A DNA stretch of 64,000 bases from NCBI RefSeq assembly GCF_025985425.1, contig NZ_CP094972.1, positions 2,963,540-3,027,539 of the forward strand. The letters run 5' to 3'. Positions 10,571 through 48,871 of the stretch are shown piece by piece. Under the pieces are notes generated by a model. That model searched no databases. It was given only the letters and a program-made list of their open reading frames with translations, and was not told the DNA's origin. Within the stretch, counting starts at the first letter, position 1; every line of letters begins with the position of its first letter. This DNA is from Entomomonas sp. E2T0. GTDB lineage: Bacteria > Pseudomonadota > Gammaproteobacteria > Pseudomonadales > Pseudomonadaceae. The translations under genes were made by a program, and so were the position numbers.

Positions 10571-10637
10571 AAGTTTATTATTTATGTAAAGTTTGCCCTC
10601 CTAAAAATAATAGTTAATTTTTTATCAGGGAAAAAAT

Positions 10638-13534: not shown

Positions 13535-15250
13535 ATGCGTTTCCACAACACCCTACTTTTTACTTTAGTTAGCTACTCAACAGTATTAGTAGCTAACCAA
13601 ATTAGTGTAGAGGTTATACCAGAAAATAAAGCCATTAAAGATAATATTGAAGCCTACATTGGTACTTTTGAAGACCAAGATACACCTACTCTATTACGTC
13701 TGCAAACTGTTGTAAAAAAACAAGCGATAGAGGCTACTCAAGCACTTGGTTACTATGATACTCAAGTACATACAAGGGTAAGAGGCAAAAAAACTAATCA
13801 CCCTACCCTGAAAATAAAGGTTTTATTAGGTGATCCTGTTTATTTAAGAAATGTAAATATTGATATACAAGGCGATGCGGCTACGCTTAAAGAATTTAAA
13901 ATACCCAGTGGCCAAGACTTAACAACAGGCGCCATCTTAAATCATGGTGTCTATGAAGGTGCAAAATCACAAATCAAAGCACAAGCCTTACACTATGGTT
14001 TCTTTTTTGGTGAATTTACTCAACATCAACTATTGATTAATCCAGAAGAAAAAAGAGCTGATATCAATATTAAATACCAAAGTGGCCCTCGAGCAACACT
14101 AGGAAAAGTTACGTTCAGTAGAGAAGATAACCCCTTTGATGAAGACTTACTATACCGTTTTGTAAATTTTAAAGAAGGGACTCCTTACAATTCAAACCTA
14201 ATTGCTGAACTCAATAATAACCTACAATCTAGTGGTTATTTTGAAGATGTACGGATTGATGCCATCCCTACTGACAAAGAACATACTGAACTGCCTGTTA
14301 CTGCCCAAGTTAAAGCAACTAAATCAAGAGTATTAAGTATGGGACTCGGTTTTTCTACAGATATTGGACCGAGAACACAATTTGGCTGGGAACGCCCATG
14401 GATTAACAGCAGGGGCCATAAACTAGGTTTTAATACAGAAGTTTCAGGGCCTAGACAAAATATTACCACATGGTATCAAATCCCCATGGAAGACCCATTA
14501 ACTGACAATGTACGTTTTACTGCCGGTTTACAACATGAAGATATTGTAGACACTGAAAGTACCTTGTTAACCTTAGGAGTAGAACGTAACAAGAAACTTG
14601 ATAGCGGTTGGATGCGTACACTCTTTTTACGTTGGCAAAATGAAACCTATAAAGTAGGTGAAGAAGATGCTACTCGTATGTTTCTAATGCCTGGCTTTAA
14701 TTACTCTTATCTAAGATCTGATAATAGTATTGATCCATCTAAAGGTTATCGGTTGCAATTTGGTTTATCTGGTGGCAAAGAAGGTCTCTTATCTGCTGCC
14801 GATTTTATTCGTTACACTGGTTCAGCAAAAGGTCTTTACACCTTTGCTGATAAGCATCGTTTTTTAAGCCGTATTGAAGTAGGCGGAATCGATAGCCCAA
14901 ACTATGAAAAAATACCGCCCTCATTACGTTTCTATGCAGGTGGTGACCAGAGCGTTCGTGGTTATGACTATCAAACACTCTCACCCAGAGATGATGATCA
15001 CAAAAAGATAGGTGGCCGCTATATGATCGCTGGTAGCATGGAATATCAATATCAATTTGCTGAAAAATGGCGCGCAGCTACCTTTATTGATAAAGGTAAT
15101 GCTGGTGACTCATGGACAATGGGCCTAAAAACAGGGGTAGGTGTAGGTATACGTTGGGTATCGCCTGTTGGCCCTATTCGAGTGGATATTGCCCATGGTG
15201 TTGAAGATAACTCGGTTAGACTCCACTTTTCAATGGGGCCTGAATTATGA
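13535..15250 (+). CDS. tamA: translocation and assembly module outer-membrane protein TamA (Omp85 family)
   Basis: 571 aa with POTRA-like repeats and an Omp85 barrel. Immediately followed by tamB with a 4-nt overlap. Confidence 0.85.
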   Translation: MRFHNTLLFTLVSYSTVLVANQISVEVIPENKAIKDNIEAYIGTFEDQDTPTLLRLQTVVKKQAIEATQALGYYDTQVHTRVRGKKTNHPTLKIKVLLGDPVYLRNVNIDIQGDAATLKEFKIPSGQDLTTGAILNHGVYEGAKSQIKAQALHYGFFFGEFTQHQLLINPEEKRADINIKYQSGPRATLGKVTFSREDNPFDEDLLYRFVNFKEGTPYNSNLIAELNNNLQSSGYFEDVRIDAIPTDKEHTELPVTAQVKATKSRVLSMGLGFSTDIGPRTQFGWERPWINSRGHKLGFNTEVSGPRQNITTWYQIPMEDPLTDNVRFTAGLQHEDIVDTESTLLTLGVERNKKLDSGWMRTLFLRWQNETYKVGEEDATRMFLMPGFNYSYLRSDNSIDPSKGYRLQFGLSGGKEGLLSAADFIRYTGSAKGLYTFADKHRFLSRIEVGGIDSPNYEKIPPSLRFYAGGDQSVRGYDYQTLSPRDDDHKKIGGRYMIAGSMEYQYQFAEKWRAATFIDKGNAGDSWTMGLKTGVGVGIRWVSPVGPIRVDIAHGVEDNSVRLHFSMGPEL

Positions 15251-18200
15251 AGTTAACACGTAAAATAGCAAAATACTTTTTTATCATTTTACTTATTTTA
15301 ATCCTATTGCTTATTGCAGCCCTGTCATTTGCTGTAAAAACCGAGACAGGAAGTCGTTACTTACTTAATATTGTACCCGGTTTAACAATTACCAACCCTC
15401 AAGGTACATTGAGTGGAGGCTGGTCAGCAGAACAATTAGTTTGGCAAAATGATGGTATTAAAGTAACTATTAACCATCCTATCCTTGATTGGTATGCGAG
15501 CTGTCTGGTTAAAGCTAATGTGTGTATTGATAAACTTAGTGTTGAACAATTAAATATTAAACTACTAGATAATAAAGACACTGCCTCTAATGAGTCAGCC
15601 AGTGATGAACCTATACAATTACCTACCATCCATTTGCCTGTCAGCATTGATATTAAAACTATTCAACTGGATAAATTAATACTTGATAACCAAGAAATCA
15701 TTAGTCAAACCTTATTAACTAATACCCATTGGAGTAATGCTAGTGTAAGTTTTGAATCATTGACGTTATATAGTGCTCAAGCAAAAGCTAATATAGCTTT
15801 ACAAGGTAATATTCAATTAGCGGACAATTGGCCACTGAATATTGCAGGGCAGTTACAGTTGGATCAATTACTTGAAACACCTTGGCAAATTAAACTGAAT
15901 GCCCAAGGTGAACTACAAAAACAATTAAATTTAGCCATCGAAAGCAGTGGCTATCTACAAGCCAAGATCAATGGTTCTGCACATGTTTTAGAAAAAGATT
16001 TACCTGCTGATATAACTGTAAATATTAATGACTTCTTTCCTAGTAATGTTGCGGACTTACCCAAAAGCCTAACTATCAAGCAGTTAAACCTCAACGCGAA
16101 AGGTGATTTAGCGAAAGGATTTAGTATTACAAGCCATGCAACACTCGCAGGGCAAACAACCCCTGTAAACGTAACCTTACAAAGTTTAGTAACAGATAAA
16201 CAAGCAGAACTACAAACACTTACTCTCAATACCACAGAACAACAGTTTGTAAAAATCACTGGCCAAGCTAATTTTCAGCCTAGCCTACAAGCGAAAGCTA
16301 CTATTGATTACCAACATTTTCCTTGGCAACAGTTATATCCACTAGAATCCTCGCCTCCTGTTGATCTAAGTACATTACTAGCAAACCTACAATATCAAAA
16401 CAATAACTATCAAGCGGATATCAAAGCTGCCTTAACGGGGCCGGCTGGTAATTTTGCTGTCACCTCGAAATTACTAGGTGACTTAAAACAGATTACCCTT
16501 GAAACATTACAAGTAGATACACCAGATAATGGCAATATCACAGGCAAAGCAAAAGTAACATTTGATCCTACTATTACATGGCTAGCTGATCTTAATCTAA
16601 AAGCAATTAATCCAAACTATTGGGTACCAGATTTAATAGGACTATTAAATGGTAATATTCATAGTACAGGTACGATAGTAAATAGTGCCATAGAAACAGA
16701 TAGTAAAATTGATATTACAGGGACTTTACGTAATCAGCCTACTCAAATTAAAACTCAAGTTTTAGCCAAACAGCAAATATGGAAAATTCCTGAGCTACTG
16801 GTAAAAGTAGGAAATAATCAGATTACAGGACATGCTGAACTTAACAAAAATATCCAAGCTAACTTAGATATTAATATGCCTTCACTCAACCAACTTTTAC
16901 CAGAATTAGCGGGTAATTTAAGAGGCAAAGCCCAACTTGCAGGTAGCTTACAACAACCACAAGGCAGTGTTAACTTAACAGGACAAAAATTAGCTTATCA
17001 ACAACAACGCATTAACCAATTGCAACTAACTGCCAATTTAAATGCTCAACAACAAGCCACTGTCAAACTACAAGCAAATCATATTAGATCAGGTACTACC
17101 CAGTTAGGTAATTTAATTATAGAGGGTAATGGTAATATCAATAATCAACAACTAACATTACAGTTAACAGATGGACTGGTTAAACTAATAACTGCTATAA
17201 AAAGTCAGCAAGACAAACAACATAATTGGATTGTTGATATTAATAAATTACAGTTAGCCTCGCAAGGTCAAGACTGGCAGCTACAAAGCCCAACTAAACT
17301 ACATTATAGTGCCGTAGGCGCGCTTACTCTTGACAGTCATTGTCTACAAAATGGTCAGGCAACCCTTTGCGCCATTGAGCAACAAAAATTACTGCCAGAG
17401 ACACAAATTAACTATAAGTTAGCTAATTTCCCTTTAGACAGTTTAAAACCTTGGTATCCTGAAAATTTCAATTGGAAAGGTATTCTTGCAGCTAACATTG
17501 TATTAAAACTGCCACAATCTGGTCCTACTGGAAAAATTGAAATAAATGCTAATAGTGGTACTTTCCAACTGAGAGAAAACTCTGAAGAAAGTTGGCATGA
17601 CCTACCCTACCAAAAACTTTCATTATTAGCAGATTTAACACCAAGCAAAATCACCTCACATTTAGACTTTATAGGTGGCAACTTAGGTAGCTTAAAAAGC
17701 CAACTTACCATCAATCCATTAGCAGCTAATAAACCGATTGCTGGTGATTTCTCTATTAATGGCTTAGATATAAGTATCTTCCAACCCTTTGCTCCTGATA
17801 TTAATCAACTCGAAGGTAAAATTAATGGCCAAGGCAAAATCACAGGATTCTTAGAGAAACCCTATGTATCAGGTAAAGTAACACTAAATAATGGCACGGT
17901 ATTAGGTGATATACCTGTTAGCTTAGAACAACTGCAAGTAAATGCTCTAATTGAAGGCGAAAGCCTTAAACTTGATGGTTCGTGGCGTAGTGGTCAACAA
18001 GGTAATGCAAAACTTAATGGCAATGTTAATTGGGGTAATGGCCTTAATATCAATATGGCTGTGCAAGCCAATAATTTACCTGTCATTGTAGCGCCTTATG
18101 CTAATTTAGAAGCAGGCGCTAATCTAAAATTACAGATGGATACTGAAACCTTAAATGTTAGTGGTACTGTTCAAATTCCTAGAGGTGCTATTAAAGTTAG

Positions 18201-18972
18201 GGATCTCCCTCCCTCTACAGTAACCATTTCTTCTGATGCAGTCATTGTTAGTAGTACACAATCTACTGAAACTAAAGCACCTATTCGCTTAAATATGGAT
18301 GTTGAAGTGCTTATTGGAAGTGATCGCCTTAGTTTTCAAGGCTTTGGTCTAACATCTAATATTACAGGTAACTTAAAAATTACCAGAGACTTATTTACAC
18401 AAGGCTCTGTTAATCTCAATGATGGTATTTATCGTGCTTATGGACAACGTCTAAAAATTAGCAAAGCCAGAATTTTATTTACTGGTTCACTCACAGAACC
18501 CACTTTAGATATCGAAGCAATAAGAGAGGTTGGTGATGTAACAGCGGGTATACGTGTAACAGGCCCAACCAGTGAGCCTACAGCTAAAGTATTCTCCAAT
18601 CCACCGATGAATCAAGATCAAGCGTTATCTTATATTATATTTGGTCGCCCCATGTCATCAGGTGATAATAATGTACTCGCCCAAGCAGCACTTGCTATGG
18701 GGGTAGCAGGTTCTTCAGAATCAGTTGCAAATGTTGCAAGTAAAGTAGGTATTCAAGATTTCCAACTTGATACAGAAGGCTCTGGAGATGATACCAGCAT
18801 TACAGCAAGTGGTAAAATTACAGAAGACTTAAGTATTCACTATGGCGTTAATATTTTTAACTCGCTTAATACTTTAATGTTCCGTTATAAACTTACTAAA
18901 ACAGTTTATTTAGAAGCAGCTAGTGGTGCTGCAAGTTCATTAGATATTTTCTATAAGAAAAGTTTTAAATAA
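15247..18972 (+). CDS. tamB: translocation and assembly module inner-membrane protein TamB
   Basis: 1241 aa with an N-terminal signal-anchor, a long beta-rich repetitive body and a conserved C-terminal DUF490-like segment (…SPTAKVFSNPPMNQDQALSYIIFGRP…). Confidence 0.85.
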   Translation: MKLTRKIAKYFFIILLILILLLIAALSFAVKTETGSRYLLNIVPGLTITNPQGTLSGGWSAEQLVWQNDGIKVTINHPILDWYASCLVKANVCIDKLSVEQLNIKLLDNKDTASNESASDEPIQLPTIHLPVSIDIKTIQLDKLILDNQEIISQTLLTNTHWSNASVSFESLTLYSAQAKANIALQGNIQLADNWPLNIAGQLQLDQLLETPWQIKLNAQGELQKQLNLAIESSGYLQAKINGSAHVLEKDLPADITVNINDFFPSNVADLPKSLTIKQLNLNAKGDLAKGFSITSHATLAGQTTPVNVTLQSLVTDKQAELQTLTLNTTEQQFVKITGQANFQPSLQAKATIDYQHFPWQQLYPLESSPPVDLSTLLANLQYQNNNYQADIKAALTGPAGNFAVTSKLLGDLKQITLETLQVDTPDNGNITGKAKVTFDPTITWLADLNLKAINPNYWVPDLIGLLNGNIHSTGTIVNSAIETDSKIDITGTLRNQPTQIKTQVLAKQQIWKIPELLVKVGNNQITGHAELNKNIQANLDINMPSLNQLLPELAGNLRGKAQLAGSLQQPQGSVNLTGQKLAYQQQRINQLQLTANLNAQQQATVKLQANHIRSGTTQLGNLIIEGNGNINNQQLTLQLTDGLVKLITAIKSQQDKQHNWIVDINKLQLASQGQDWQLQSPTKLHYSAVGALTLDSHCLQNGQATLCAIEQQKLLPETQINYKLANFPLDSLKPWYPENFNWKGILAANIVLKLPQSGPTGKIEINANSGTFQLRENSEESWHDLPYQKLSLLADLTPSKITSHLDFIGGNLGSLKSQLTINPLAANKPIAGDFSINGLDISIFQPFAPDINQLEGKINGQGKITGFLEKPYVSGKVTLNNGTVLGDIPVSLEQLQVNALIEGESLKLDGSWRSGQQGNAKLNGNVNWGNGLNINMAVQANNLPVIVAPYANLEAGANLKLQMDTETLNVSGTVQIPRGAIKVRDLPPSTVTISSDAVIVSSTQSTETKAPIRLNMDVEVLIGSDRLSFQGFGLTSNITGNLKITRDLFTQGSVNLNDGIYRAYGQRLKISKARILFTGSLTEPTLDIEAIREVGDVTAGIRVTGPTSEPTAKVFSNPPMNQDQALSYIIFGRPMSSGDNNVLAQAALAMGVAGSSESVANVASKVGIQDFQLDTEGSGDDTSITASGKITEDLSIHYGVNIFNSLNTLMFRYKLTKTVYLEAASGAASSLDIFYKKSFK

Positions 18973-24772: not shown

Positions 24773-25342
24773 CTAGCTTTCATTTCTAAGGGCTAATGCC
24801 CTTAGAGATTGATTATTTACTGTTAGCCAAGCAAACAAAATACCACTCAACATTCCTGTGATATGCCCCTCAAAGGATACCTCTGCACTTGGTAATAAAC
24901 CAAAAACAAAACCACCATATAACATTATTACTATAATGCAGATTAGGAAATTTTTTATAGTCCTATCAAAATAAGCATTACCCAACAGTAATCCCCATAA
25001 ACCAAATATCCAACCACTAGCACCAATATGGGAGGCTGCTCGCCCTACCAACCATAATAATAAGCCACCCACAACAATTATAAAAATACTAGCGACAATA
25101 AAATAGCGTATGGAACGCAACATACAAAGCCATGCTAAAACCACAAAACAAGATAAATTGCCTAGTAAGTGCAATACTCCACTATGAATCCAAGGAGAAG
25201 TAAAAATTCCCCATAATCCATCTAACCTACGAGGAATAACACCATAATTTGCTAAGCCGCCAGCTAAAACCATATTAATAATCTGAACACCTACCATTAA
25301 TAGGGTAATAGCCAGTACTATCCGTACTTGTTTACTCAGCAT
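24773..25342 (-). CDS. rhomboid-family intramembrane serine protease
   Basis: Six TM helices. Rhomboid catalytic GxSG motif (HIGASGWIFG) and a downstream His in a TM helix. The start overlaps the stop of the upstream 1819-aa gene by 11 nt. Confidence 0.75.
   Translation of the reverse strand: MLSKQVRIVLAITLLMVGVQIINMVLAGGLANYGVIPRRLDGLWGIFTSPWIHSGVLHLLGNLSCFVVLAWLCMLRSIRYFIVASIFIIVVGGLLLWLVGRAASHIGASGWIFGLWGLLLGNAYFDRTIKNFLICIIVIMLYGGFVFGLLPSAEVSFEGHITGMLSGILFAWLTVNNQSLRALALRNES
24786..24805. terminator. bidirectional hairpin between convergent poxB and the rhomboid gene
   Basis: CTAAGGGC-taat-GCCCTTAG. The hairpin lies inside the last codons of the minus-strand rhomboid ORF and 15 nt after the poxB stop. 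Confidence 0.45.
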
Positions 25343-28300
25343 CTTCTTGATAAGAACTTTCTGTAGGTTTACCTGCTTTTACTTTCGTATCAATCGATTG
25401 TTTAGGGTGCATACCTACATGCTGTCCTAATAGCTTCAGCTCTGTAATAATATCTTGCATACGCTGATGATTACGTAAATCTAAATCTAGCTTTTTATCC
25501 ATGGTTTTTAACATAGGCATAAAGCTATATTCTAGTGTTTCAGCTAATGTAGTTAATACTGCGTCTAAACCAGGCACAGGTTGATTTACCACTTGAATAT
25601 TAGTTTCTGGCTTATCTTGTAAAGCCTCACTAATATGAGCTAATGGTTTTATCACTTTATCCCATGGGGCTGGCTCTGGCTCTTTATCCATTACGTCGGC
25701 TATATGGGCTATACCAGAAAGCATTTTATCCCAAGGCGCTGGTTCTGGTTTTTGTTTTAAAGCAGCTATCATTTCAGCAAACTGCCCTATTACACTTTCC
25801 CATGGTGCACGCTCAGGCTCAGGTCGTGTTGCAATATTTTTAACTCCCTCAGAAAGATCAACTAACTGAGCTACCACACGGTTACCAATATTGTCGTCAC
25901 CACCCATCGACTTATTACGCAAGAAATCACGTTTAATTTGTTCCCAACGCTCTTGTTGCTGCTCAGTCATATTACCGCGTATTTCAGCCAGTTTAAGTAG
26001 ATTCTCTTCAGCACCTGTCGTTAATAGCTGTGCTTCACCTTGATAATGGTCTTCAAGCAATTGCATCAACTCTTGCTCATTCATTACCGCCGTAATTTTT
26101 TCCGCCAGCTTATTCATATTACGATAACTACCTTGTAACTTGAATGGCGGTTCAACCCGATATTTATCAGCTTGGGCGGCACTAGCAATATATTGTAAAT
26201 TTACTCTGTATACTAAATCACGAGCTCTCATTAAGTGTTGTAAGGTAGCAACAATTTCATTAACTTCAGCTGTACTGTAATCATAACTTAATTCATTACT
26301 TGAGAAAGGCTTACCTTCAGCTTTATCAATAAAACGGTAAAGGTCTGCCATATCACGAGTAGCTAAAGGCGCTAGTATAGGATTAGAAGTTAAACAGTTT
26401 TCAAGATAGCTAAGACGGAATACATCTTCCATGCCGCCTAATACATCACCTAGATTATAGATATCCGCACGGTTAGCTAACATATCAGGAATCTTAAAGA
26501 CTTCACCAGACTCTGTATAAGGGTTACCTGCCATGATGACACAGAACTTTTTACCACGCATATCGTAGGTTTTAGTTTGGCCTTTCCAAACACCTTCAAT
26601 ACGACGAGTACCATCACAAAGCGAAATAAATTTTTGTAAAAACTCAGGGTTAGTATGTTGAATATCATCCACATACAGCATTACATTATTACCCATTTCC
26701 AATGCTAGATTAAGTTTTTCCAACTCTTGTCTAGCAGTAGCATTAGGTGCTTGTGCTGGATCGACTGAAGTAACTTCATGACCAATTGCAGGGCCATTAA
26801 TCTTCATAAAGATTAAACCTAAACGATTAGCCACATACTCCATCAAGGTTGTTTTACCATAACCGGGTGGAGAAATAAGCATTAATAACCCCATAAGGTC
26901 AGTACGTTTGTTCTCCCCCACTGTACCCATTTGTTTGGCTAAGTTATCGCCAATCACACCTAAGTAAATGTCATTGATTAAGCGGTTACGAACAAATGAA
27001 CTCAATGGCTTTGGCTTAAACTCTTCTAAACGCAGGGCATTTCTTTCCCGATTAATAACTTCTTGACGGTATTCTTGATAACGTTTGAAATTAGGTACAA
27101 ACACTTGTTGCTGATAACCAAAGCGCTCATAAAAATCATCAATCCCTAGAATCATTTTGGTATTTTGAATGCGCGAATGTTCTCCCATCAAACCTTCAAC
27201 AGAGAAACGCAAATCCATTTCTGTAAAACGCCAAATTACACTACTATCCAATAAGCTAAGTGCTACTGCTTCTGGAATATAGCTTTGTAAAGCAGTTAAG
27301 TCATCATCGGTTTCAATCACTACATCATTATCATTAGCCTGACAAAGTGCAGTAAACCATCTTTCCGCTAACTCCCAACGAGCTAAAGTACGGCCTTGTA
27401 AGTTAGCTAATGACTGTTGAAAACCAAGCCACATTTGTGCTGCTTCTAAACGTTTCTGCAGTGTTTCCATTAATTGTTTAGCATAACGAGTAAAGGTAAA
27501 CTCAACATTTACACCAGCAGAAAGCACAGCTACTAAATATTCAGCTGCCATCGAACGCTCTTGCTTATCAACAGGTAAGCCATGAACTTCTAAATAGCTA
27601 TCCATTGCTTGTGCAATTTCTATTTGTAAATCTTTTAATGCTTGTTGGCTTCCAAATAACTTAGCCATATTCATTGCAGTATGAGCACGTTCAGGCCATT
27701 TTTCAGCTTCAATATTTTCTTTCCAACGTCCCCAAAATAGCGTTGCAAAACCACGTGCTAATGGTGGGTAACGTAATAAACCAACACTACGATGTAATGG
27801 AATTAATTTACCTAACAATAAACAAGCATCATGATCATGAATGCCTCGCTCATAGCCATCACGATAACGAGGAGCTGCAAAATCACGTACCGTTTTTTCT
27901 AATTGAGCAGGATCTTTTAACTGTTGCTCTAACAGATCAATGCTTAAACCATCTTTATTTTGTTCTGCTGTTTGTAAAATAAGTCCAGCTAAATATTCAC
28001 CACGATATAAATCAGGTGATTCTGAGTCTGTAGTATATTGCCAATAGTCCCGTAGCTCATCTAACTCCGTAGCCCCTAATGATTCAAAATAATCAGTACC
28101 TGTTAAGTGAGTATAAAGTTGCTCACCTCGTGGCATAATGGTTAAATCAAGCTCTTGCGTATTAACACTAAAGCGATGGCGAGGGCCTAATTTAATAACA
28201 TTACCACCCGCTTCAAAGATTTCTGACTTATCTCTTAAACTACGAATAGCCTGATCTTTAGTTGATTTTAAACGGGCATCAAGATCATCTGCCCTTACGC

Positions 28301-30791
28301 TATCTTTTAACTCTCTTAATTTGTCTGATAATTCACGTAACTTTAAAGCTAAAGGGTCACCTGCAAAGAATGCATTTAACTCTTCTTGATTAGTGAAACG
28401 TTCTGTACGACGTTTCATACTCTCTAAAATACGTAGTGCAGCATCTTGTAGAGATTGTGCTTTACGTTGTCTTTCATCCAATAAAGCTTGTTTATGAGTA
28501 TCAAATGTCTCTAATAATTCTTCACGTTTAGCTAGAATATCAGTCAAAAATTCTTCATTATCACTAAACTGACTTTCTAACTCTTCCAACTGTACTAATA
28601 AACGAGATAATTGATCATCACAACGCTCAGGGTCAGTTGCTAAAGACAACGCATTAGTAATTGATTGTGTGAACAGTGTAAATTGAGCACCAAATTGGGC
28701 AACTGACTCATTACTTCGTAATGACTTACGACGTTGTTCAGACCTCGCTCTAGCTTGATTTAAGCGGCCATAAATGGCTGAAATAGCCTCTACAATTAAA
28801 GTACGTTGATTCGCATCATCAATTTTTAATGTACTCATCAATTGCGAAAGTGTGTCAAGATCATCGCCTAGCCCTTTTAAGCCAGTCAACGGTTCTTCTA
28901 ATTGCACAACTGTTGTAGCAGCTTGCGCTTCAGCATCTAAAGCTTCTAACTTTTCTGAGAATGGTTCTAATGCTTCTGGTGTTGATAAAAATACACCTGT
29001 TGCTTCTGAAATATGCAACTGTGATTTTTTTAACTGTTCTTCTAAAAAATCAACACGTGCCACATCCATATAACGGTAGTCACGTATTGTTAGTAAGTAT
29101 CCTAATTGCTTAGTGATAGCATGCAATGCATCTACATACTCCTGAATAGTTTCCCAACTATCTGGACGTAATGAAGTAATTAATGTTTTTTGTTGTTCTT
29201 CTGCTTGTACTAGTGTTTCGGCAGATTGGCGACGAATACTTTCTACTTTTTCATATTCATCTAACACCGCTTCACTAGTTGCAGCAATTTCTCGAACTGA
29301 TTGAACAATATCGCCGCAATGATTATCAGTCAACCAACTATAACTATCTAATAATTTACGAATATTTTCACGAATCAAGTTATAGTGATTAACTGATACA
29401 GATTTACTATCAATGTCTCGACCTAAACTATAAAGATCAGAAATACCTCTTACTAATTCTGGATTGCCAATACGCCCCCAAAATGTATTACGGGTAGGTT
29501 GTCTGGCAGCAAACTCTTCTGAAAGATAAGGTGTTTGCCATATTTGCATTGGATGAACACGAATAGGTTCACTACCTTCACTGGCAAAAATAACCATTTT
29601 GCCATCATCAAAACGCGCATAACCATGCCCCAAAATAGGATTTTGGAGGCGTCTTTCAATCATATTATAGGTAAATAACGCACTACGCCCTTCACTTGGT
29701 TCATAAAAGATATAAAGTACATCTTCACCATTAGGAGATTTTACAGAACGCTTGAATCGCATCCCCTCCATAGACTGATCAAACTTTTTATGCTCACCAT
29801 TTTGCAAATAATATCCACCAGGGAAAATAATGCCATGATCCTCTGGTAATTGAACACAAGACTGACCAATAGCATCTATTCGCTCTACATTTTGTGTAAT
29901 GGTGTTATAAACTAGATAACGCCATATATCTTCTCTATAAGGTAATATTTTTAATAAAACTAAACTACCTAATTGAGCATATTCGATGATCGCGTCATCT
30001 ACTGACTGTGTTTTATCCGTTACAGGTTCGCTATAGATACCTAAACCTGTTGTTGTATTATTCTCTACTTTAATGGTTAGATCACCACCTGTAGTTTCTA
30101 CAAACACAGTATCTAAAATATTAATATGAGGAAACTTACCATTTACCCGCATATCGCGGTTAGCTTTTTGCCACTCAAAATCATAAGGAGCAGGCAGAGC
30201 AATATCACGCTCGCCACGATTATCAATATAACTAATTTGCTTATGATCTGCAGACAGTGCCCAACGGAAAACACGGATATCCGTTATCTTGTCACCCATC
30301 TGGAAGCTAGCTAATAACTTACCATTATTTTGGGTCAGTTGTAATAAACGTGCATCCTTATAGTATGCATAAAGCTCTGTATAATCTCGTACAAAATTAG
30401 GGTCTTTTAAAAAAGTGCCCTCTAGCTCTACGTGCTCTACATCAAAGCCTTCTTCTACCTCAATTAATTTATACAGTGAAAAAACATCTTCAACTCGAGT
30501 TTCTTTTTTAAGGCCTAAAAATACATTGTATCCAAACAGTAACCAATCACCTGCGCGCACAATATCACGAGCAACACTATTATTTTCAGTACGAATACGA
30601 ATTCGCCCAATCACTTCCATGTCACTACGTTTAAACTCATCTAAACGCTTTTGATTAATAATTTCTATTTGCTTGCGTAATTGCTGACCTTGATCTTGTA
30701 AACGCTTATTTAACACTTCATAAGCGCCACCTTCAGCAACTGCTTTATCTAGTAATTCTTGCTCTTGTGCTACTGCTTGGGAATCAACCAT
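25332..30791 (-). CDS. giant (1819 aa) AAA+ ATPase-domain protein of unknown family
   Basis: A single P-loop core sits near residues 1300-1460: Walker A ISPPGYGKTT (nt 26847-26864), Walker B NVMLYVDD about 60 aa later, sensor-1-like CVIMAGNP, and Arg-rich LANRAD. This is the MoxR/dynein-type AAA+ order, not the split SMC/SbcC arrangement. A long coiled-coil-prone charged middle region spans roughly residues 500-870. Three tandem approximately 23-aa repeats ([KRE]PEP(ER)APW[ED]..) lie at residues 1656-1727. Confidence 0.6.
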   Translation of the reverse strand: MVDSQAVAQEQELLDKAVAEGGAYEVLNKRLQDQGQQLRKQIEIINQKRLDEFKRSDMEVIGRIRIRTENNSVARDIVRAGDWLLFGYNVFLGLKKETRVEDVFSLYKLIEVEEGFDVEHVELEGTFLKDPNFVRDYTELYAYYKDARLLQLTQNNGKLLASFQMGDKITDIRVFRWALSADHKQISYIDNRGERDIALPAPYDFEWQKANRDMRVNGKFPHINILDTVFVETTGGDLTIKVENNTTTGLGIYSEPVTDKTQSVDDAIIEYAQLGSLVLLKILPYREDIWRYLVYNTITQNVERIDAIGQSCVQLPEDHGIIFPGGYYLQNGEHKKFDQSMEGMRFKRSVKSPNGEDVLYIFYEPSEGRSALFTYNMIERRLQNPILGHGYARFDDGKMVIFASEGSEPIRVHPMQIWQTPYLSEEFAARQPTRNTFWGRIGNPELVRGISDLYSLGRDIDSKSVSVNHYNLIRENIRKLLDSYSWLTDNHCGDIVQSVREIAATSEAVLDEYEKVESIRRQSAETLVQAEEQQKTLITSLRPDSWETIQEYVDALHAITKQLGYLLTIRDYRYMDVARVDFLEEQLKKSQLHISEATGVFLSTPEALEPFSEKLEALDAEAQAATTVVQLEEPLTGLKGLGDDLDTLSQLMSTLKIDDANQRTLIVEAISAIYGRLNQARARSEQRRKSLRSNESVAQFGAQFTLFTQSITNALSLATDPERCDDQLSRLLVQLEELESQFSDNEEFLTDILAKREELLETFDTHKQALLDERQRKAQSLQDAALRILESMKRRTERFTNQEELNAFFAGDPLALKLRELSDKLRELKDSVRADDLDARLKSTKDQAIRSLRDKSEIFEAGGNVIKLGPRHRFSVNTQELDLTIMPRGEQLYTHLTGTDYFESLGATELDELRDYWQYTTDSESPDLYRGEYLAGLILQTAEQNKDGLSIDLLEQQLKDPAQLEKTVRDFAAPRYRDGYERGIHDHDACLLLGKLIPLHRSVGLLRYPPLARGFATLFWGRWKENIEAEKWPERAHTAMNMAKLFGSQQALKDLQIEIAQAMDSYLEVHGLPVDKQERSMAAEYLVAVLSAGVNVEFTFTRYAKQLMETLQKRLEAAQMWLGFQQSLANLQGRTLARWELAERWFTALCQANDNDVVIETDDDLTALQSYIPEAVALSLLDSSVIWRFTEMDLRFSVEGLMGEHSRIQNTKMILGIDDFYERFGYQQQVFVPNFKRYQEYRQEVINRERNALRLEEFKPKPLSSFVRNRLINDIYLGVIGDNLAKQMGTVGENKRTDLMGLLMLISPPGYGKTTLMEYVANRLGLIFMKINGPAIGHEVTSVDPAQAPNATARQELEKLNLALEMGNNVMLYVDDIQHTNPEFLQKFISLCDGTRRIEGVWKGQTKTYDMRGKKFCVIMAGNPYTESGEVFKIPDMLANRADIYNLGDVLGGMEDVFRLSYLENCLTSNPILAPLATRDMADLYRFIDKAEGKPFSSNELSYDYSTAEVNEIVATLQHLMRARDLVYRVNLQYIASAAQADKYRVEPPFKLQGSYRNMNKLAEKITAVMNEQELMQLLEDHYQGEAQLLTTGAEENLLKLAEIRGNMTEQQQERWEQIKRDFLRNKSMGGDDNIGNRVVAQLVDLSEGVKNIATRPEPERAPWESVIGQFAEMIAALKQKPEPAPWDKMLSGIAHIADVMDKEPEPAPWDKVIKPLAHISEALQDKPETNIQVVNQPVPGLDAVLTTLAETLEYSFMPMLKTMDKKLDLDLRNHQRMQDIITELKLLGQHVGMHPKQSIDTKVKAGKPTESSYQEDAE

Positions 30792-30914
30792 TTAATGCCC
30801 CATTTAATTAACAAGGCGACCTAGGCCGCCTTAATTATTACTACAATGGCCTGTTAAATATAAAGTCAGCCAGATTATTTAAGCCTACTCCATCCTTGGA
30901 GTTAATTTAATCCA

Positions 30915-33086
30915 TTAATCATCAGTTTTTGGTGTGTCTTTTTTACCACTACTCGCTACTCGCTCAGCAGTTGCTGATAACAACTGTTGAATTGCTCCTT
31001 GAGCAACAGAGCTGCTATTTACAAAGCCATCAAGTGACTTGCCCACAGCCAATGCTTTAGAGAATTTCTCAAAGAATTCGCCTTCACCACCCACAACATC
31101 AATCTTCGTCTTAGCCAGACCAGCCGCCAATACTTCTGCTTGATCTTTAGCAATTTCTTTATTAGCAGCAATTGCAGTGATTGCTTGTTCGAAGGTTTTT
31201 TCCAATTGTAAACGGAACTCTTCATGGGCACGCGCACTATCAGAAAGAGCATTAAGTGAAGTAAATTTCTCAGCAAGACCCGTTGCTTCTGCTCTCATAC
31301 GTTTTAATAGTACTTCCGCTTCAGCATCACCTACATCACGGCTTACTTTGGCCTTCACGATACCTACTTGTTCTTCACCACGTGCTTGAGCAGATAGCTT
31401 TTCTTCCATCACTTTAGCTTCTACCAAGCCTTCTTTTTCCTTGGCAACAGCAGCAGCTTCAGTCACACGAGCTTCAACAAAACCTTGCTCTTCCTTACCT
31501 TTTGCTTCAGATAGCATAAGCTCCATTTGTACTTTAGCTTCAGCAAGACCTTGCTTCTCATTAGCATCTGCTTTAAATTCAATAACACGCGCCTCTGCTA
31601 AACCTTTTTCTTCAACAGCCTTAGCTTCTGCTATACCTCTTTCAGCCGTTAATTTTGCTTCTACTAAGCCTTCTTTTTCACGTACAGAAGCTTGTACTTC
31701 ACGAACTCTTGCATCCGCCAAACCAGGTGCCGCACGCTCTGCTTGAACACCTTCTGCCAAACGTTTTTGTGACTCCGCTTTTTTCGCAGCCGCCTCTAGT
31801 TCAGCCTGTGCCATATTATTAATTTCAACTGCTTTATGTTTAGATGTCTCTGCATCAGCTTCTGCTTGCTTCACTTGGCGAACTAAATCACGTTCTGCTT
31901 CTGCTTGTGCATCAATAATACTTACTTGTTTAGAGCGGTCAGCTTCTGAAACTTGACGTACTTCTTTAATAGCTTCTTCTTCCTTAGCTACCGTACGTTC
32001 AACAGCCACACGATCACGAATAATATTAGCAATCGCTGTACGCTCTGCTTCTAAGGCTTTTTCTTTATCAATACGTTGTAATTCAACTTCACGCTCACGC
32101 TTAACAATGGCTTCTTGTTGAGCTTGAGTTACACCTTCCTCTTGTTCAACTAACACACGCTTTTTATTTAACTCGGTAACTTCCAACTCACGTTGAGTAT
32201 TAATATCTGCTTTACCAATTTCTTGTTCAGCTTGTTTTTGAGCCACTTCTGCTTTAGTACGCTCTTCAGCTTGAACCTTCTGAGTTTCAGCTTCTTCACG
32301 TGCTTTAGTAGTCTCAATTTCACGTTTTTGTCTATTTTCAGCATCAGCTCTTTGACGCTCTAAAGCTAAAGTAGCCTCTTGAGTTTCAACATTTTTCTTA
32401 GTAATCGCTAAATCTTTATCGCGATCCAATTCATTCGTTTTAACAATTTCAGAAGAAGTTCTTTCAACAATCTTACGGATACCTTCTGCATCCATAATAT
32501 TAGTATTCTTTAAATGCTCAATTGGTGTTTGATCTAAGTAGTCAATCGCAGCATCTTCTAGTGAATAACCATTAAGATCTTCACCGATTGCTTGCATAAT
32601 TTCATCACGAAAACGCTTACGATCAGCAAATAACTCTTCAAAATTAAATTTCTTACCTACTGTTTTTAATGCTTCAGAAAATTTAGCATTAAATAAAGTA
32701 GCTACTGCTGTATGATCTGAGGCACGGTCAGCGCCTACTGATTTAGCTACTTTCAACACATCCTCTTGAGTGGCATTTACTTTAAGATAAAAAGCTACTG
32801 TAATATCAGCACGAATATTATCTTTACAGATTAAACCCTCTGTACCACGGCGATCAATATCCAAAGTAATCAAAGAAATTTTCATAAATTCCTTTTTATA
32901 AATCACTGGATAAACTAATGCACCAGTAAAAGTTACTTTAGGTATTGAAGATAAGGTATTAACAATCAATGCTGTACCTTGTGGCACTTTAATATAAAAA
33001 GACTTTACTATAAGTACACTAACTATAATAAGCCCTACAACAGCCGCAGCTATTATGCCAACAACAGCTAAAATTGACGAAAACAT
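30915..33086 (-). CDS. flotillin/SPFH (band-7) family protein, YqiK-like, with a long repetitive Glu/Ala/Lys tail
   Basis: N-terminal TM helix, then an SPFH domain (…TLDIDRRGTEGLICKDNIRADITVAFYLKV…). Roughly 350 aa of heptad-like EA-rich repeats follow (EKEGLVEAKLTAERGIAEAKAVEEKGLAEARV…). 723 aa. Confidence 0.8.
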   Translation of the reverse strand: MFSSILAVVGIIAAAVVGLIIVSVLIVKSFYIKVPQGTALIVNTLSSIPKVTFTGALVYPVIYKKEFMKISLITLDIDRRGTEGLICKDNIRADITVAFYLKVNATQEDVLKVAKSVGADRASDHTAVATLFNAKFSEALKTVGKKFNFEELFADRKRFRDEIMQAIGEDLNGYSLEDAAIDYLDQTPIEHLKNTNIMDAEGIRKIVERTSSEIVKTNELDRDKDLAITKKNVETQEATLALERQRADAENRQKREIETTKAREEAETQKVQAEERTKAEVAQKQAEQEIGKADINTQRELEVTELNKKRVLVEQEEGVTQAQQEAIVKREREVELQRIDKEKALEAERTAIANIIRDRVAVERTVAKEEEAIKEVRQVSEADRSKQVSIIDAQAEAERDLVRQVKQAEADAETSKHKAVEINNMAQAELEAAAKKAESQKRLAEGVQAERAAPGLADARVREVQASVREKEGLVEAKLTAERGIAEAKAVEEKGLAEARVIEFKADANEKQGLAEAKVQMELMLSEAKGKEEQGFVEARVTEAAAVAKEKEGLVEAKVMEEKLSAQARGEEQVGIVKAKVSRDVGDAEAEVLLKRMRAEATGLAEKFTSLNALSDSARAHEEFRLQLEKTFEQAITAIAANKEIAKDQAEVLAAGLAKTKIDVVGGEGEFFEKFSKALAVGKSLDGFVNSSSVAQGAIQQLLSATAERVASSGKKDTPKTDD

Positions 33087-44304: not shown

Positions 44305-44730
44305 TTATTGAATTAATTCACAGTCTAATAGAATGTTAGTTTTTAGAAGCTTACTTATTGGACAGATATTTTTTGCTAAAGTAGCTAACTCAAAAAATTG
44401 TTCTTTAGAAATATTAGGAATTTTTGCTTTAACATATATATGTGAGCTTGTGACTTCATGTGTAGTATCATCAATTGTTACCTCTACACGAGTCTCTAAT
44501 TGTTTGAAATCAAATCCTTCTTTTTCAAATACTATTTTAAACATTGAAGAGTAACAATCAGCATGTGCAGCAGCAATAAGCTCTTCTGGGCTTGTTTCTT
44601 TGGATACATTTTCTATATAACGAGTTTTATAAGTATGATGTAATTTATTAAGAGCATTACTGCCAGTAGTTATAACGCCCTCCCCTTCATTTAAAGAGCC
44701 ATTCCATTCACTAGTTGCAAAACGCTTCAT
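44305..44730 (-). CDS. OsmC/Ohr-family peroxiredoxin
   Basis: 141 aa with the two conserved Cys (…HADCYS… and …NICPIS…) of the OsmC fold. Confidence 0.75.
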   Translation of the reverse strand: MKRFATSEWNGSLNEGEGVITTGSNALNKLHHTYKTRYIENVSKETSPEELIAAAHADCYSSMFKIVFEKEGFDFKQLETRVEVTIDDTTHEVTSSHIYVKAKIPNISKEQFFELATLAKNICPISKLLKTNILLDCELIQ

Positions 44731-44920
44731 ATGACACCTTTAGAAAATATAGTTTTAGATACTGTATACAATTTTTCATTTACATTCAATATAGACAAGT
44801 AGATTATGATTGGAAACTTATAGATACAGCAGATAAATATGTATAAGCTAGATTTTTTAATAAAAATGCTCAAATTCATATAGGGATGAAAAGATAATTT
44901 TTTCAACATATATTATACAG

Positions 44921-44958
44921 AAAAAAGCCTAGTTAATTAATTTAACTAGGCTTTATAT
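44921..44958 (-). terminator. rho-independent terminator downstream of the autotransporter gene
   Basis: On the minus strand, a 10-bp stem GCCTAGTTAA/TTAACTAGGC followed by TTTTTTCTG. Confidence 0.5.
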
Positions 44959-44977
44959 GTAATGCATAAGATGAACC
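44921..44977. repeat. direct repeat: terminator hairpin plus a degenerate copy of the tRNA-Leu 3' end (att-like; distal boundary of the autotransporter islet)
   Basis: AAAAAAGCCTAGTTAATTAATTTAACTAGGCTTTATAT + gtaaTGCAtAAGATGaaC matches 48261-48317 (AAAAAAGCCTAGTTAAATTAATTAACTAGGCTTTATAT + ttggTGCAgAAGATGggaC). Confidence 0.55.
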
Positions 44978-45029
44978 TCATACTTATTTTCATAAAACGC
45001 ATTAATACAATTTTATTAACACATAAATA

Positions 45030-47558
45030 TTAAAAGCGATAGCTGTAGCCTAAGTTGAGTTGTCGTTGTTGAAATCTACTACCTTTAGTATATTCTGCAT
45101 CTAGGTAGATATTATGATTTTTATTAAGGTTAATGCTTCCACCTATACCACCACTTCTCCAATTACCTTTAAGCTTATAGTTATGCTTGCTTCCATTCAA
45201 TCTATAGGCTGCAAGGCCATCCATTTCTCGAAAGAAGTTGGTTTTTAGGTAAATATTAAAAGGTGTTAGGCCTGTTGATTGATAACCCAGATTTAGCCCG
45301 AGCCTACCTTGAGTAGTATGGTAATCACTTAAGTATATTTTAAGGCCATTACTAGCATTGATATGAACACTACTTTGATAACCATATGTAAGTTGCGCTT
45401 GTGGCTCAATATAAACTCCCTCTTTTTGTTGATTAAAGATTATTCGCTTACCTATTTCTAAAGAGGCGGTATAACCTTGAGTTTTGCCATTACCTTTAAT
45501 TTCCATCCCAGTTGTATCTTTGACATTAAAATGGTTATGGATATAGTTGTATTTGAGTAGGGTATCTAGATAGATACCATTATTATTATAATAAGTGGCA
45601 TAGAAACCCACATGGTAGTTTTTTACTGTACCATTTCCTTCTTGATAATTAGGATTACCTTGCGTATAACCTACGACACCACCAACTATTAAATCAGACT
45701 TGTTAAAGTCAAGTTTGGTATCTATACCACCTTGAGTGCCTATATAGGGCATATCGAAACCAGCAACCCCTTGCCCACTAAATAAATTTAATTTACCACC
45801 ATAGCTTCTTAACCAGAAACCTGTATTAGTGTTTTCAGGTTGATTTCGAAGATCACCTAATCGTTGTAGTAGGGTTTGGTTTTCTATATAGTTAGAAAAG
45901 TAACCTGTATTAAAGAAACTAACGCCTGCATTGGCGGTGCTTGTTAATGCTTTACCAGTCGCATAAAGTTTCCAATTTGTGCCATCTTTAATAAGTCTAT
46001 ATTGGTAACCACCTGCTTCAACCGCATTTGTTAGAGAAAAATCACTTATTCCATCCTCTGTTTTTACAACAATTAATTCTTCAGTACCATTAGTTGGACT
46101 TGAAGCATTATTATTAATAGATAATTTATGAGAGCCAGAACTATTATCCGTAATATTTAATAAGTCACCAGTTAAGTTACCAACATCTGCTTTCATTGCA
46201 AAAGTACCTGCACCTGAAAGGTCTTTGGTTGTAAGGGTAATGGGTGTAGAGAATGAGCTGGAGTTAAATTGCACAATACCGCCTGTATTTTCCATAGACT
46301 GTATGCTATTATCGGTAGTAAATATCCATTTACCTGATTTGCTTAGATTAAGTTCATTAACATTGGTTGTATTACCATTAAGTTCAGAATTAGTATTAAT
46401 TGATAAATTAAGTATTCCACCTGTAACTGAAGTAGCTGTACCATTGGCTACAGTATTATTGTTAAGCGTGATATTGGCTTCACCGCTCCTAGAAACCGCT
46501 ATTGCTCTACCAATTCCGCTATTTAAGATGGTTGAGTCAAGATCTATATTAGTCTTTCCACTTAAAACCGCTATTCCTACTGAAGATTTAGATGATAAGC
46601 TGGTATTAGAAACCGTTACAGTCCCAGTATTTGCTTGAGTCATTAAAGCATAAGCATCTTGTCCTAATACTTCAATTATGGAATTTTTTACATTAGCATT
46701 ACCTAAAACTCCCACTGAAACCCCATTAGATTGTGTACCTATAGTTTTAATCGTTGTTCTATCCAATGAAATTGTTGCATTGTTTACAGCAGAGCCAAAT
46801 GCAAAGGTGCCGCTGGTTTCTATGGTTGTATCGGTTACATTAATACCCCCCCCTTCTGTCGCATATATTCCAAAAGCATCATCACCAATAGTGTTAATTT
46901 GTGAATTAGTTAGGTCTATTGCTCCTGAAGCTCTAGTGTGAACACCATAACCTTGTATTCCTGTTGTATTAATAATTACATTATTAGCTGAAACTAATGA
47001 GCTATTATTAGAGTATTGACCTACACCCATACTAAACAAAGCCGCTGAGTCGTAACCTGTCGTTTTAATAATAGTCCCGTTTTTTAAATCTACTTTACCT
47101 CCTTGATAAGCCAATACACCATGATTTTGATTATTTTGAACTGTTATAGAACCTCCATCCATAGTAATTGAAGATCTCTTAGTCGTTGATTCACCATTAG
47201 CCAAAATACCATATCCTGATCCTGATCCTGCGGGAGCAGTTAAAGTAATGGTTGTATCCTTTAAATTAATTTCTCCACCACTAGCAGTGTAAGCTCCAGA
47301 AGTTTGTTGTAAACTAGAACTTAAATTTAAATCAAGACCATTAATGACAGAATTAGAGGAAGAAACAAGAGCAGAATTATTCAACCCTGTAGTAGTTGAT
47401 TCATAAGTCTTTGACGATAAATTATGTGCTCTTCCGTCATTTGCTACATAGTTGGCTGAATAACTAGGATTGTTAATTAATAAATAGCTGATAAACAAAG
47501 GGGCATAATTAAATTTTTTATTTATTTGTTTCATAATAATTATCCTTATAATAAGCAA
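45030..47558 (-). CDS. autotransporter (type Va) with a beta-helical, pectate-lyase-like passenger
   Basis: 842 aa with an extended signal peptide and a Thr/Ser/Gly/Asn-rich repetitive passenger. The C-terminal beta-barrel ends …LNLGYSYRF. Confidence 0.8.
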   Translation of the reverse strand: MLIIRIIIMKQINKKFNYAPLFISYLLINNPSYSANYVANDGRAHNLSSKTYESTTTGLNNSALVSSSNSVINGLDLNLSSSLQQTSGAYTASGGEINLKDTTITLTAPAGSGSGYGILANGESTTKRSSITMDGGSITVQNNQNHGVLAYQGGKVDLKNGTIIKTTGYDSAALFSMGVGQYSNNSSLVSANNVIINTTGIQGYGVHTRASGAIDLTNSQINTIGDDAFGIYATEGGGINVTDTTIETSGTFAFGSAVNNATISLDRTTIKTIGTQSNGVSVGVLGNANVKNSIIEVLGQDAYALMTQANTGTVTVSNTSLSSKSSVGIAVLSGKTNIDLDSTILNSGIGRAIAVSRSGEANITLNNNTVANGTATSVTGGILNLSINTNSELNGNTTNVNELNLSKSGKWIFTTDNSIQSMENTGGIVQFNSSSFSTPITLTTKDLSGAGTFAMKADVGNLTGDLLNITDNSSGSHKLSINNNASSPTNGTEELIVVKTEDGISDFSLTNAVEAGGYQYRLIKDGTNWKLYATGKALTSTANAGVSFFNTGYFSNYIENQTLLQRLGDLRNQPENTNTGFWLRSYGGKLNLFSGQGVAGFDMPYIGTQGGIDTKLDFNKSDLIVGGVVGYTQGNPNYQEGNGTVKNYHVGFYATYYNNNGIYLDTLLKYNYIHNHFNVKDTTGMEIKGNGKTQGYTASLEIGKRIIFNQQKEGVYIEPQAQLTYGYQSSVHINASNGLKIYLSDYHTTQGRLGLNLGYQSTGLTPFNIYLKTNFFREMDGLAAYRLNGSKHNYKLKGNWRSGGIGGSINLNKNHNIYLDAEYTKGSRFQQRQLNLGYSYRF

Positions 47559-48260
47559 AAAATCACCAGCAATGTATCAATCACATTGCCAATAACAAAT
47601 CCTCTCTTAACTTAAATTTACTCATCTAAATCAGTAGAATATTTCAAATAAAACTAAAAGATTTAGAATCTATAAAATATTACAAAGAGAATGAAAAACA
47701 TTTCCTATTACAGAATTAGCCTAATAAGCCAATTAACTTTCTTAGTTATTGTTATATAAAATCAATTACTTAAAGCTTTATAAAATAATATTTAAGATAA
47801 AAAACTTATGTTGTTTTTTAAAGTTAGATATTTTCGCAGGGCACATATTAAATTATTTTTTTAAATAAACTTAATAACTCATATTAAATCGAATTAATTA
47901 TACTTTTGTCTATAAAAGTAAACAACAGTTAATAAGTTTATTTTGATAAAAAGGGAGGGAGATTTTAACAATAGGCCTATACAAAACATCTAAACTATGC
48001 CTTGTTGAGTTAATAGAATCTAATAGATAATATAAACATGTTATTAGTTAGTTTTTTCCCTATTCATCTTCTTATGAGCAGTTTGTAGAAGAAACTAAAA
48101 ATAGCCACAACCACCATTATAAAATTATTAACTAGGTAGAGGGGAATAATTAAAAGTTATCCCCTTTTTTATGTTGGCCGCCCCTATAGGCTTTTTTTAT
48201 ACCCGCGAAATTAAAAATTAAAATAGAGTTTAAATTGGGGGTTAAGTAAATCTTTAAAAG

Positions 48261-48298
48261 AAAAAAGCCTAGTTAAATTAATTAACTAGGCTTTATAT
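48261..48298 (-). terminator. rho-independent terminator of tRNA-Leu (secG-leuU transcript)
   Basis: Minus strand: GCCTAGTTAATTAATTTAACTAGGC hairpin followed by TTTTTTCTTTT, located immediately 3' of the tRNA CCA end. Confidence 0.6.
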
Positions 48299-48299
48299 T

Positions 48300-48387
48300 T
48301 GGTGCAGAAGATGGGACTCGAACCCACACGACCTACGGTCACTACCACCTCAAGGTAGCGCGTCTACCAATTCCGCCACCTCTGCAC
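48300..48387 (-). tRNA. leuU: tRNA-Leu(GAG)
   Basis: The reverse complement GTGCAGAGGTGGCGGAATTGGTAGACGCGCTACCTTGAGGTGGTAG…GGGTTCGAGTCCCATCTTCTGCACCA shows a class-II tRNA with a long variable arm, anticodon loop cTTGAGGt (anticodon GAG) and an encoded CCA. It sits directly downstream of secG, as in E. coli. Confidence 0.85.
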
Positions 48388-48412: not shown

Positions 48413-48871
48413 TTAGCTACCTTCTGTAGGTTTTGCTGGTTCATGATTAATTTGATTATCTGTTTCTGTTTGATCTACTGTTACATTAGGTGCCGAGTTT
48501 AACTCTACTGCTCCATTTGCACTAGGTGCAGGTGCATGATCTACTGCTGGAACTTCATCTACAACTGGCTGTTGTGGTTGAGTAACTGGCTGAGTAACAG
48601 CAGGAGCAACTTTATCAAATAAACTAGCTGAGGATTTAGATTTAGCATAGTAAGCTAAACCAATACTGGTAATAAAGAAAACAGCAACTAAAACAGCTGT
48701 TGTTCTACTTAGAAAATTAGCAGAACCTTGGCTACCAAAAACTGTATTTGAAGCACCACTACCAAAAGATGCTCCCATATCAGCACCTTTACCATGTTGT
48801 AGTAATACTAAAACAATAACACCTATAGCAACTAATAAATGAACAATAACAATAACTGACTCTAATAACAT
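48413..48871 (-). CDS. secG: preprotein translocase subunit SecG
   Basis: MLLESVIVIVHLLVAIGVIVLVLLQHGKGADMGASFGSGASNTVFGSQGSANFLSRTTAVLVAVFF… plus a longer Pro/Gln-rich C-terminal tail. Confidence 0.85.
   Translation of the reverse strand: MLLESVIVIVHLLVAIGVIVLVLLQHGKGADMGASFGSGASNTVFGSQGSANFLSRTTAVLVAVFFITSIGLAYYAKSKSSASLFDKVAPAVTQPVTQPQQPVVDEVPAVDHAPAPSANGAVELNSAPNVTVDQTETDNQINHEPAKPTEGS

Follow-up and report, generated by a model that had tools for sequence, protein, structure and literature searches.

How did a single autotransporter gene come to stand between the leucine tRNA gene leuU and osmC in Entomomonas sp. E2T0, and is the DNA that carries it a discrete unit? Strain E2T0, a beetle-gut dweller, was isolated from larvae of Zophobas morio and has a genome with 35.9% GC (PMC9872594). 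In the window, the 64-kb stretch of DNA that was analysed here, the minus strand carries, in this order, tpiA, secG (48413-48871), the intact tRNA-Leu(GAG) gene (leuU, 48300-48385), a 3.34-kb segment with the autotransporter gene, and osmC. The tRNA gene was identified by ARAGORN and Rfam (tRNA, 52.8 bits), and SecG and the TIM protein encoded on its 5' side were recognised by Pfam. SecG of the window is 100% identical to the E2T0 protein. The 3.34-kb segment, called the islet below, is a discrete, strain-variable insertion/deletion unit bounded by two copies of the 3' end of leuU and its terminator.

The islet is enclosed by a direct repeat of 61 nt. One copy adjoins the tRNA (48259-48319, minus strand), the other lies distal to it (44919-44979, minus strand), and the two agree directly at 51 of 61 positions; no further copy was found in the window. 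Both copies were recovered by a repeat finder, a pattern search and a junction alignment, with the repeat finder reporting 44910-44973 against 48250-48313 (83% identity over 64 nt, spacing 3340 nt). The initial annotation had placed the repeat at 48261-48317 and 44921-44977, and the present analysis confirmed it while refining its register. Read on the tRNA strand, the repeat unit begins with the terminal 20 nt of tRNA-Leu and continues through a spacer of 5 nt into a hairpin of 31 nt and a closing TTTCT; the islet starts 41 nt beyond the 3' end of the tRNA. The copies match each other at 14 of 20 positions in the tRNA part and at 4 of 5 in the spacer. The tRNA-proximal copy, which is attL-like, has the spacer AATAT, and the distal, attR-like copy contains a pseudo-tRNA 3' end (44960-44979), the spacer in its ancestral form (CATAT) and a hairpin with a flipped loop. 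The pseudo-tRNA does not have the T-loop motif of any functional tRNA.

Relatives for comparison were found through SecG homologues and exact-protein look-ups. They comprised a 1.4-kb metagenome contig from run SRR34828481 (L089), E. asaccharolytica (L090), the assembly GCA_964328925 (L091), which represents a more distant species of the genus, and a third Entomomonas assembly (L093). A TpiA search of genome contigs was dominated by distant Pseudomonadales (best 61% identity) and gave no Entomomonas, and the contig of a more distant SecG relative (L095) terminates within the tRNA and is thus uninformative.

Contig L089 is an exact empty site, in which an intact tRNA-Leu 3' end is followed by one hairpin and then by the osmC flank. 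An empty site with one repeat copy in a related genome had been predicted from the E2T0 sequence, as had the strain-variable presence of the islet, and both predictions were borne out by this close relative. OsmC of L089 is identical to that of E2T0, and the DNA identity is 99.3% in osmC and 92.4% in the adjoining intergenic DNA (44731-44918), the old flank that lies directly after the single hairpin in L089; divergence in the flanks of the two strains ranges from 1 to 8%. The same hairpin was present once each in L090, L091 and L093, directly after leuU; it is the native leuU terminator, and the initial annotation had likewise designated it the terminator of the tRNA. The genes that follow it were lysR, an SDR gene and a flavodoxin-like gene in E. 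asaccharolytica, and about 700 bp of dead DNA and then a hexapeptide acetyltransferase gene in L091 and L093. The empty site in L089, together with the single hairpin and the different genes after it in three other Entomomonas, shows that the 3.34-kb segment is a real, repeat-bounded and strain-variable indel at a hotspot, and that the 3' flank of leuU is a synteny break where gene content varies. In Pseudomonas, Halopseudomonas and Stutzerimonas (L001, L003, L007 and L022), a tRNA-Met(CAT) gene lies about 100 nt past the secG-linked tRNA-Leu(GAG) gene; it is absent from this place in L090, L091 and L093, so in Entomomonas the synteny breaks right at leuU.

Past the U-run, the proximal and distal flanks were unrelated (alignment score 19; mean score of shuffles 21), indicating that the duplication is confined to the site of about 61 nt, as at attL/attR. 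The two flanks were no more alike than shuffled sequences, which ruled out a longer repeat running past the U-run. Tandem duplication was also rejected as the origin, since it would give homologous flanks after both hairpins. Insertion of a transposon or insertion sequence was likewise dismissed: there was no transposase open reading frame (ORF), the listed repeat pairs included no terminal inverted repeat of the insert, and the duplication is 61 nt long and not 2-15 bp.

The tRNA-proximal hairpin (48264-48294, minus strand) is a strong intrinsic terminator with a 13-bp stem, a 5-nt loop and a U-run; it was called by the terminator scan and folds at -16.9 kcal/mol (z = -4.6). The distal hairpin (44924-44954, minus strand), called by the same scan, lies 75 nt past the stop codon of the autotransporter gene and folds at -19.3 kcal/mol (z = -5.7). 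This strong intrinsic terminator probably serves the autotransporter gene, in line with the earlier proposal that the cargo reuses a duplicated tRNA terminator. Each 31-nt hairpin is the exact reverse complement of the other, with identical 13-bp stems and a flipped 5-nt loop (TTAAT against ATTAA), and the pair also forms a perfect 31-bp inverted repeat with 3.3 kb between its arms. The loop difference is one flip event and not three substitutions, and the tRNA-proximal copy has the ancestral orientation, which L089, L090 and L091 also show. With the flipped loop set aside, the 41-nt block of spacer, hairpin and TTTCT in the distal copy has zero substitutions relative to the ancestral sequence. 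The tRNA part has six differences (30% divergence), five of them GC-to-AT changes and four G-to-A on the plus strand. The spacer base that separates the two copies is C in the distal copy, L089 and L090, A in the proximal copy and T in L091; it is simply a position that varies between species.

If the hairpin belonged to a terminator family common in Entomomonas, which by chance follows both leuU and the autotransporter gene, the locus would bear no signature of insertion. Other terminators of E. asaccharolytica do have stems resembling AAAGCCTA...TAGGCTTT; their scores (31-37) are borderline, since the best shuffles reach 35-44. However, the hairpin pattern with at most three mismatches occurred at two sites only in the 64 kb, with 0.00 expected, and the relatives had one hairpin per leuU locus of about 20 kb (L090 and L091), one in the L089 contig and none in the ilvA locus of E. 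asaccharolytica. Furthermore, the repeat runs on in register into the tRNA: on the tRNA side, 19 of 25 nt match the ancestral sequence, a level reached by 2 of the 127,950 25-mers of the window, which are the two copies themselves. The hairpin count and this in-register match exclude chance for the repeat. The initial annotation had pointed out that a repeat found at many unrelated terminators would be a mere terminator family, and no such distribution was seen in the window or in the loci of the relatives. With an exact empty site also at hand, this explanation is largely refuted and its probability is close to nil.

The repeat also leaves its mark on short-read assemblies. All short-read (Logan) contigs of E2T0-type strains (L084-L088) break exactly in the hairpin, at window positions 48265 and 44953, as is expected where one canonical 31-mer is present two times. 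A 3366-nt contig running from hairpin to hairpin, found in three samples, is a separate assembly of the islet. Three Logan contigs of SRR22077681, the Illumina run of the published E2T0 genome, were identical to the window. Short reads by themselves cannot distinguish the integrated form of the islet from the excised and inverted ones.

The sole gene of the islet (45030-47534, minus strand) encodes an intact classical (type Va) autotransporter. Its start is the ATG at 47534, preceded by AGGA, and the product of 834 aa is identical to NCBI WP_264746131.1; the length of 842 aa given initially came from an ORF beginning at TTG and was wrong. The protein matched TIGR01414 (E = 2e-84), and its barrel domain is full length (PF03797, positions 1-254 of 255, E = 7.6e-39). 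Like the Bordetella classical autotransporters Vag8, BrkA and pertactin, it combines a beta-helical passenger that has a pertactin-type junction (PF03212, E = 6.6e-27; matches to pertactin and Vag8) and a full barrel of the 12-strand type. Unlike them, it carries an N-terminal region of about 390 residues that matched Entomomonas-like sequences only, and it is distant from its nearest solved relatives in the PDB, which are Vag8 (best in phmmer, E = 7.7e-43), BrkA (barrel structure, E = 8e-27) and pertactin. With these as the closest structures, the earlier label of adhesin was unsupported. The N-terminus, MKQINKKFNYAPLFISYLLINNPSYSA, resembles a Sec signal peptide by eye and is a candidate for one.

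The closest homologues, 54-56% identical, were a tandem pair in E. asaccharolytica (P0001 and P0002), located between ilvA and a DUF1289 gene, and the metagenomic P0003, which also adjoins an ilvA start. They share family, length and genus with the E2T0 gene, but their locus is elsewhere and has no flanking repeats. As homologues stand at ilvA both in E. asaccharolytica and on the metagenome contig, the copy at leuU is ectopic. A search of JGI metagenomes for relatives of the autotransporter found none. The comparison of GC content and codon usage proposed in the initial annotation gave native-like values: against the other 43 genes of the window, GC was 0.348 versus 0.365 +/- 0.025, GC at third codon positions 0.216 versus 0.225 +/- 0.036, and the codon log-likelihood had a z of about -1.2. 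The cargo is a divergent relative within a family native to the genus, placed at an ectopic site, and its composition does not mark it as foreign. In a 2537-nt contig of another run, the otherwise 99-100% identical gene is split at a T6 run (45619-45624, codons ~639-641) into ORFs of 358 aa and 193 aa; either a true frameshift in that allele or a fault of the assembly would account for this.

The remainder of the islet (47535-48258) is 724 bp of non-coding DNA with 24.4% GC and no stop-to-stop ORF of at least 46 codons. This part had been described as about 740 bp of AT-rich non-coding DNA at 47559-48260; the AT-richness held, but the span was different and included the end of a dead ORF and an orphan terminator. 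The last ~27 codons of the dead gene, which read FFPYSSSYEQFVEETKNSHNHHYKIIN followed by a stop (48052-48132, plus strand), converge on the tRNA and are homologous to a 63-codon remnant in the same place in L091 and L093, as seen in translations and by blastn (74% over 89 nt). The 63 codons are kept in L091, and L093 has an internal stop. No family or homologue of the remnant was found in Pfam, PHROGs or a search of 5.8 billion proteins. The dead gene has an orphan terminator-like hairpin with a T-run (48141-48170, plus strand), read from the sequence and conserved in the L091 alignment, whose fold is not above shuffles (z = -0.87). At the other end, the terminator scan found a 15-bp hairpin with a U-run (47562-47596, minus strand), which also appears in the centroid fold. 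Its end lies 28 nt before the autotransporter ATG, and it might act as an attenuator in the leader or be what is left of the terminator of a lost upstream gene.

About 180 nt nearest the tRNA (48082-48263), a piece that takes in the dead gene end and the orphan terminator, have a homologous counterpart at this junction in L091 and L093, with a score reached by 0 of 500 shuffles. Identity was 87% where the tRNA and hairpin were included and 74% over the next 89 nt. The backbone identity between the genomes compared is 71-88%, so vertical descent of this piece would be compatible with its divergence. The shared DNA reflects either recurrent insertion of related elements at one site or a piece older than the species.

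A duplication limited to the site, unrelated flanks and an exact empty site together make up the architecture of attL/attR after integration at a tRNA 3' end. Conservative site-specific recombination at the leuU-terminator site, with a recombinase that acted in trans or was later lost, is the most likely origin of the islet; this origin is unproven, and we put its chances at about even. A small circular element with a matching site would have recombined with the chromosomal leuU-terminator site, leaving the site duplicated on both sides of the insert, and the recombinase would have been provided in trans or lost afterwards. The change would have been a gain in E2T0 and not a precise loss in its relative. 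The crossover most plausibly took place within the identical block of hairpin and U-run, not inside the tRNA, and the imperfect pseudo-tRNA arm would have been brought in by the element. The insert would have brought an AT-rich leader together with a single autotransporter gene from a family native to the genus, and transcription of that gene would now stop at the leuU terminator copy that the insertion displaced. The homology of the tRNA-proximal part of the islet to the L091/L093 junction fits related elements that use one site.

The confinement of all six substitutions to the tRNA part, its 30% divergence against 1-8% in the flanks and the variable spacer base favour a crossover in the hairpin or U-run with an element-borne arm. 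The distal copy has the spacer C of L089 and L090 at a position that is variable, so such a crossover needs one extra change only. The divergence of the tRNA part had initially been put down to decay by G-to-A changes. Four such changes are present on the plus strand, as claimed, but an arm borne by the element and never identical to the tRNA fits at least as well, given the clean 41-nt block and the low flank divergence. An insertion far older than the split of E2T0 and L089, followed by precise loss in L089, is a possible alternative to the element-borne arm.

Several observations weigh against site-specific integration. Six-frame fragments of 47535-48263 compared with Pfam (E <= 10) gave no integrase remnant and nothing relevant, and the genes up to 10 kb from the islet in both directions had no recombinase domains; the integrase loss assumed in the initial annotation stays conjectural. 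No free, phage-borne or plasmid-borne copy of the element or its site was present in PLSDB, INPHARED, IMG/VR or JGI metagenomes: searches of IMG/VR and JGI metagenomes gave no instance of the hairpin pattern, and the islet DNA had no match in the plasmid or phage databases. The composition of the cargo gene is native. The hairpin cores now have opposite loop orientations, which requires an extra event. A decayed distal repeat was sought in L091, L093 and L090 and none was found, and its lack in L091 and L093 is a further adverse point. Finally, the proximal ~180 nt held in common with L091 are diverged (74-87%) about as vertically inherited DNA would be, and this piece could be ancestral and not element-borne.

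The missing integrase, which was found nowhere near the islet, and a cargo and composition from inside the genus would also suit a RecA-dependent, Campbell-type insertion. Circular or transforming DNA of another Entomomonas with a diverged leuU 3' end and terminator beside the autotransporter gene would have recombined through the identical block of about 40 nt and duplicated the homologous segment. An identical block of this size beside a tRNA part of 70% identity has the look of a diverged homologous segment from another lineage, and the mosaic divergence between E2T0 and L089 (99.3% identity in osmC, 92-93% beside it) shows frequent homologous exchange. However, about 40 nt is close to the lower length limit for efficient RecA recombination, which lies near that value. 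The insertion would also need a donor, so far unobserved, with the autotransporter gene beside a leuU-like terminator, whereas all homologues were found at ilvA, and the pseudo-tRNA, having no T-loop motif, is not simply leuU of another species. We regard RecA-dependent insertion as unlikely.

The same divergence in the pseudo-tRNA bears on the direction of the event. The segment may predate the split of E2T0 and its close relatives, perhaps going back to the L091 lineage, with L089 emptied by precise deletion or excision between the repeats and the pseudo-tRNA representing the decayed original tRNA end under AT-biased mutation. For an insertion after the split, at least six changes in the pseudo-tRNA would have a Poisson P of about 0.005, given 30% divergence against 1-8% in the flanks, and five of the six changes are GC-to-AT. 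The proximal ~180 nt, which L091 and L093 have as well and whose similarity is such as vertical descent could give, point the same way. This history requires independent precise losses in L089 and E. asaccharolytica, though, and would leave the distal hairpin, spacer and U-run unsubstituted while the neighbouring 20 nt acquired six changes, for which the probability is (20/61)^6, about 0.001, if changes were evenly spread. Also against it is a weak collinear identity of 14 nt, TTTTCATCCCTATA on the tRNA strand, between the distal flank of E2T0 and L089 (window 44879-44892) and the 3' end of lysR in E. asaccharolytica (L090, ~10636-10650), at a similar distance from the hairpin; it was reached by 3 of 500 shuffles and weakly hints that the junction of hairpin and old flank may be ancestral. 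On balance, an ancient segment lost from L089 seems improbable. The idea that the distal flank holds a lysR pseudogene was dropped, as tblastn found nothing beyond the 14-nt collinear identity. A 60-codon ORF between the distal hairpin and osmC (44727-44909, minus strand) had no Pfam match, its L089 homologue has two single-base indels, and it is probably no gene.

Site-specific recombination at leuU also raises a more speculative idea. With 13-bp inverted arms round an asymmetric 5-nt centre, similar to lox or dif, the leuU terminator might itself be the site of a host- or element-encoded recombinase that inserts integrase-less, single-gene cassettes after leuU in Entomomonas. We think this very doubtful. 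If it were true, the flipped centre of the distal copy would put the two cores in inverted instead of direct orientation, and the cassette would be locked in.

Islands and islets associated with tRNA genes are known to be formed by tyrosine-integrase elements, for example P4-type elements at leuX, pheV and selC in Enterobacteriaceae, and Williams is said to have described sublocation classes of tRNA integration sites in 2002. The E2T0 islet resembles these islands in its position at a tRNA 3' end, in direct repeats that include a tRNA 3' segment, in its presence or absence between close strains with a single-copy empty site, in a cargo of the surface or virulence type, and in its location at a hotspot with different cargo in each species. 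It differs from them in having no integrase or remnant of one, in its small size (3.3 kb, one gene), in that the repeat copies are identical in the terminator that follows the tRNA and not in the tRNA itself, and in a composition and cargo native to the genus, with only the non-coding part unusually AT-rich (24%). The literature searched contained no description of leuU as a site of genomic islands. IMEX elements, which are integrase-less, exploit the host XerCD recombinases at the palindromic chromosomal dif site. Like them, the E2T0 islet has no recombinase of its own and is bracketed by a host site with two inverted arms round a short asymmetric centre (13 + 5 + 13); this is an analogy only, as the site is a tRNA terminator and not dif, and the repeat also holds tRNA-like sequence. 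A consensus for Xer binding was not seen, though no search aimed at it was made. In position, repeats and polymorphism, the segment is a small tRNA-associated genomic islet; in having neither an integrase nor atypical composition, it departs from that class.

Two other loci of the window were recorded. Genes for TamA (Omp85/POTRA) and TamB, the translocation and assembly module that aids autotransporter biogenesis, are located at 13535-18972 (plus strand), about 26 kb from the islet. At 25332-33086 (minus strand), an 1819-aa DUF3686/DUF7902/AAA ATPase adjoins a 723-aa protein with no Pfam match; the two could be a DNA-repair or defence-type pair.

The current understanding of genomic islands is unchanged by this locus, which offers a small test case for the origin of integrase-less islets at tRNA terminators. 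For Entomomonas, a little-studied genus of insect guts, it provides a clean, repeat-bounded presence/absence polymorphism of a gene for a surface protein and identifies leuU as a hotspot of gene content. The islet is a simple strain marker, and the protein it encodes is a candidate factor in the interaction with the host.

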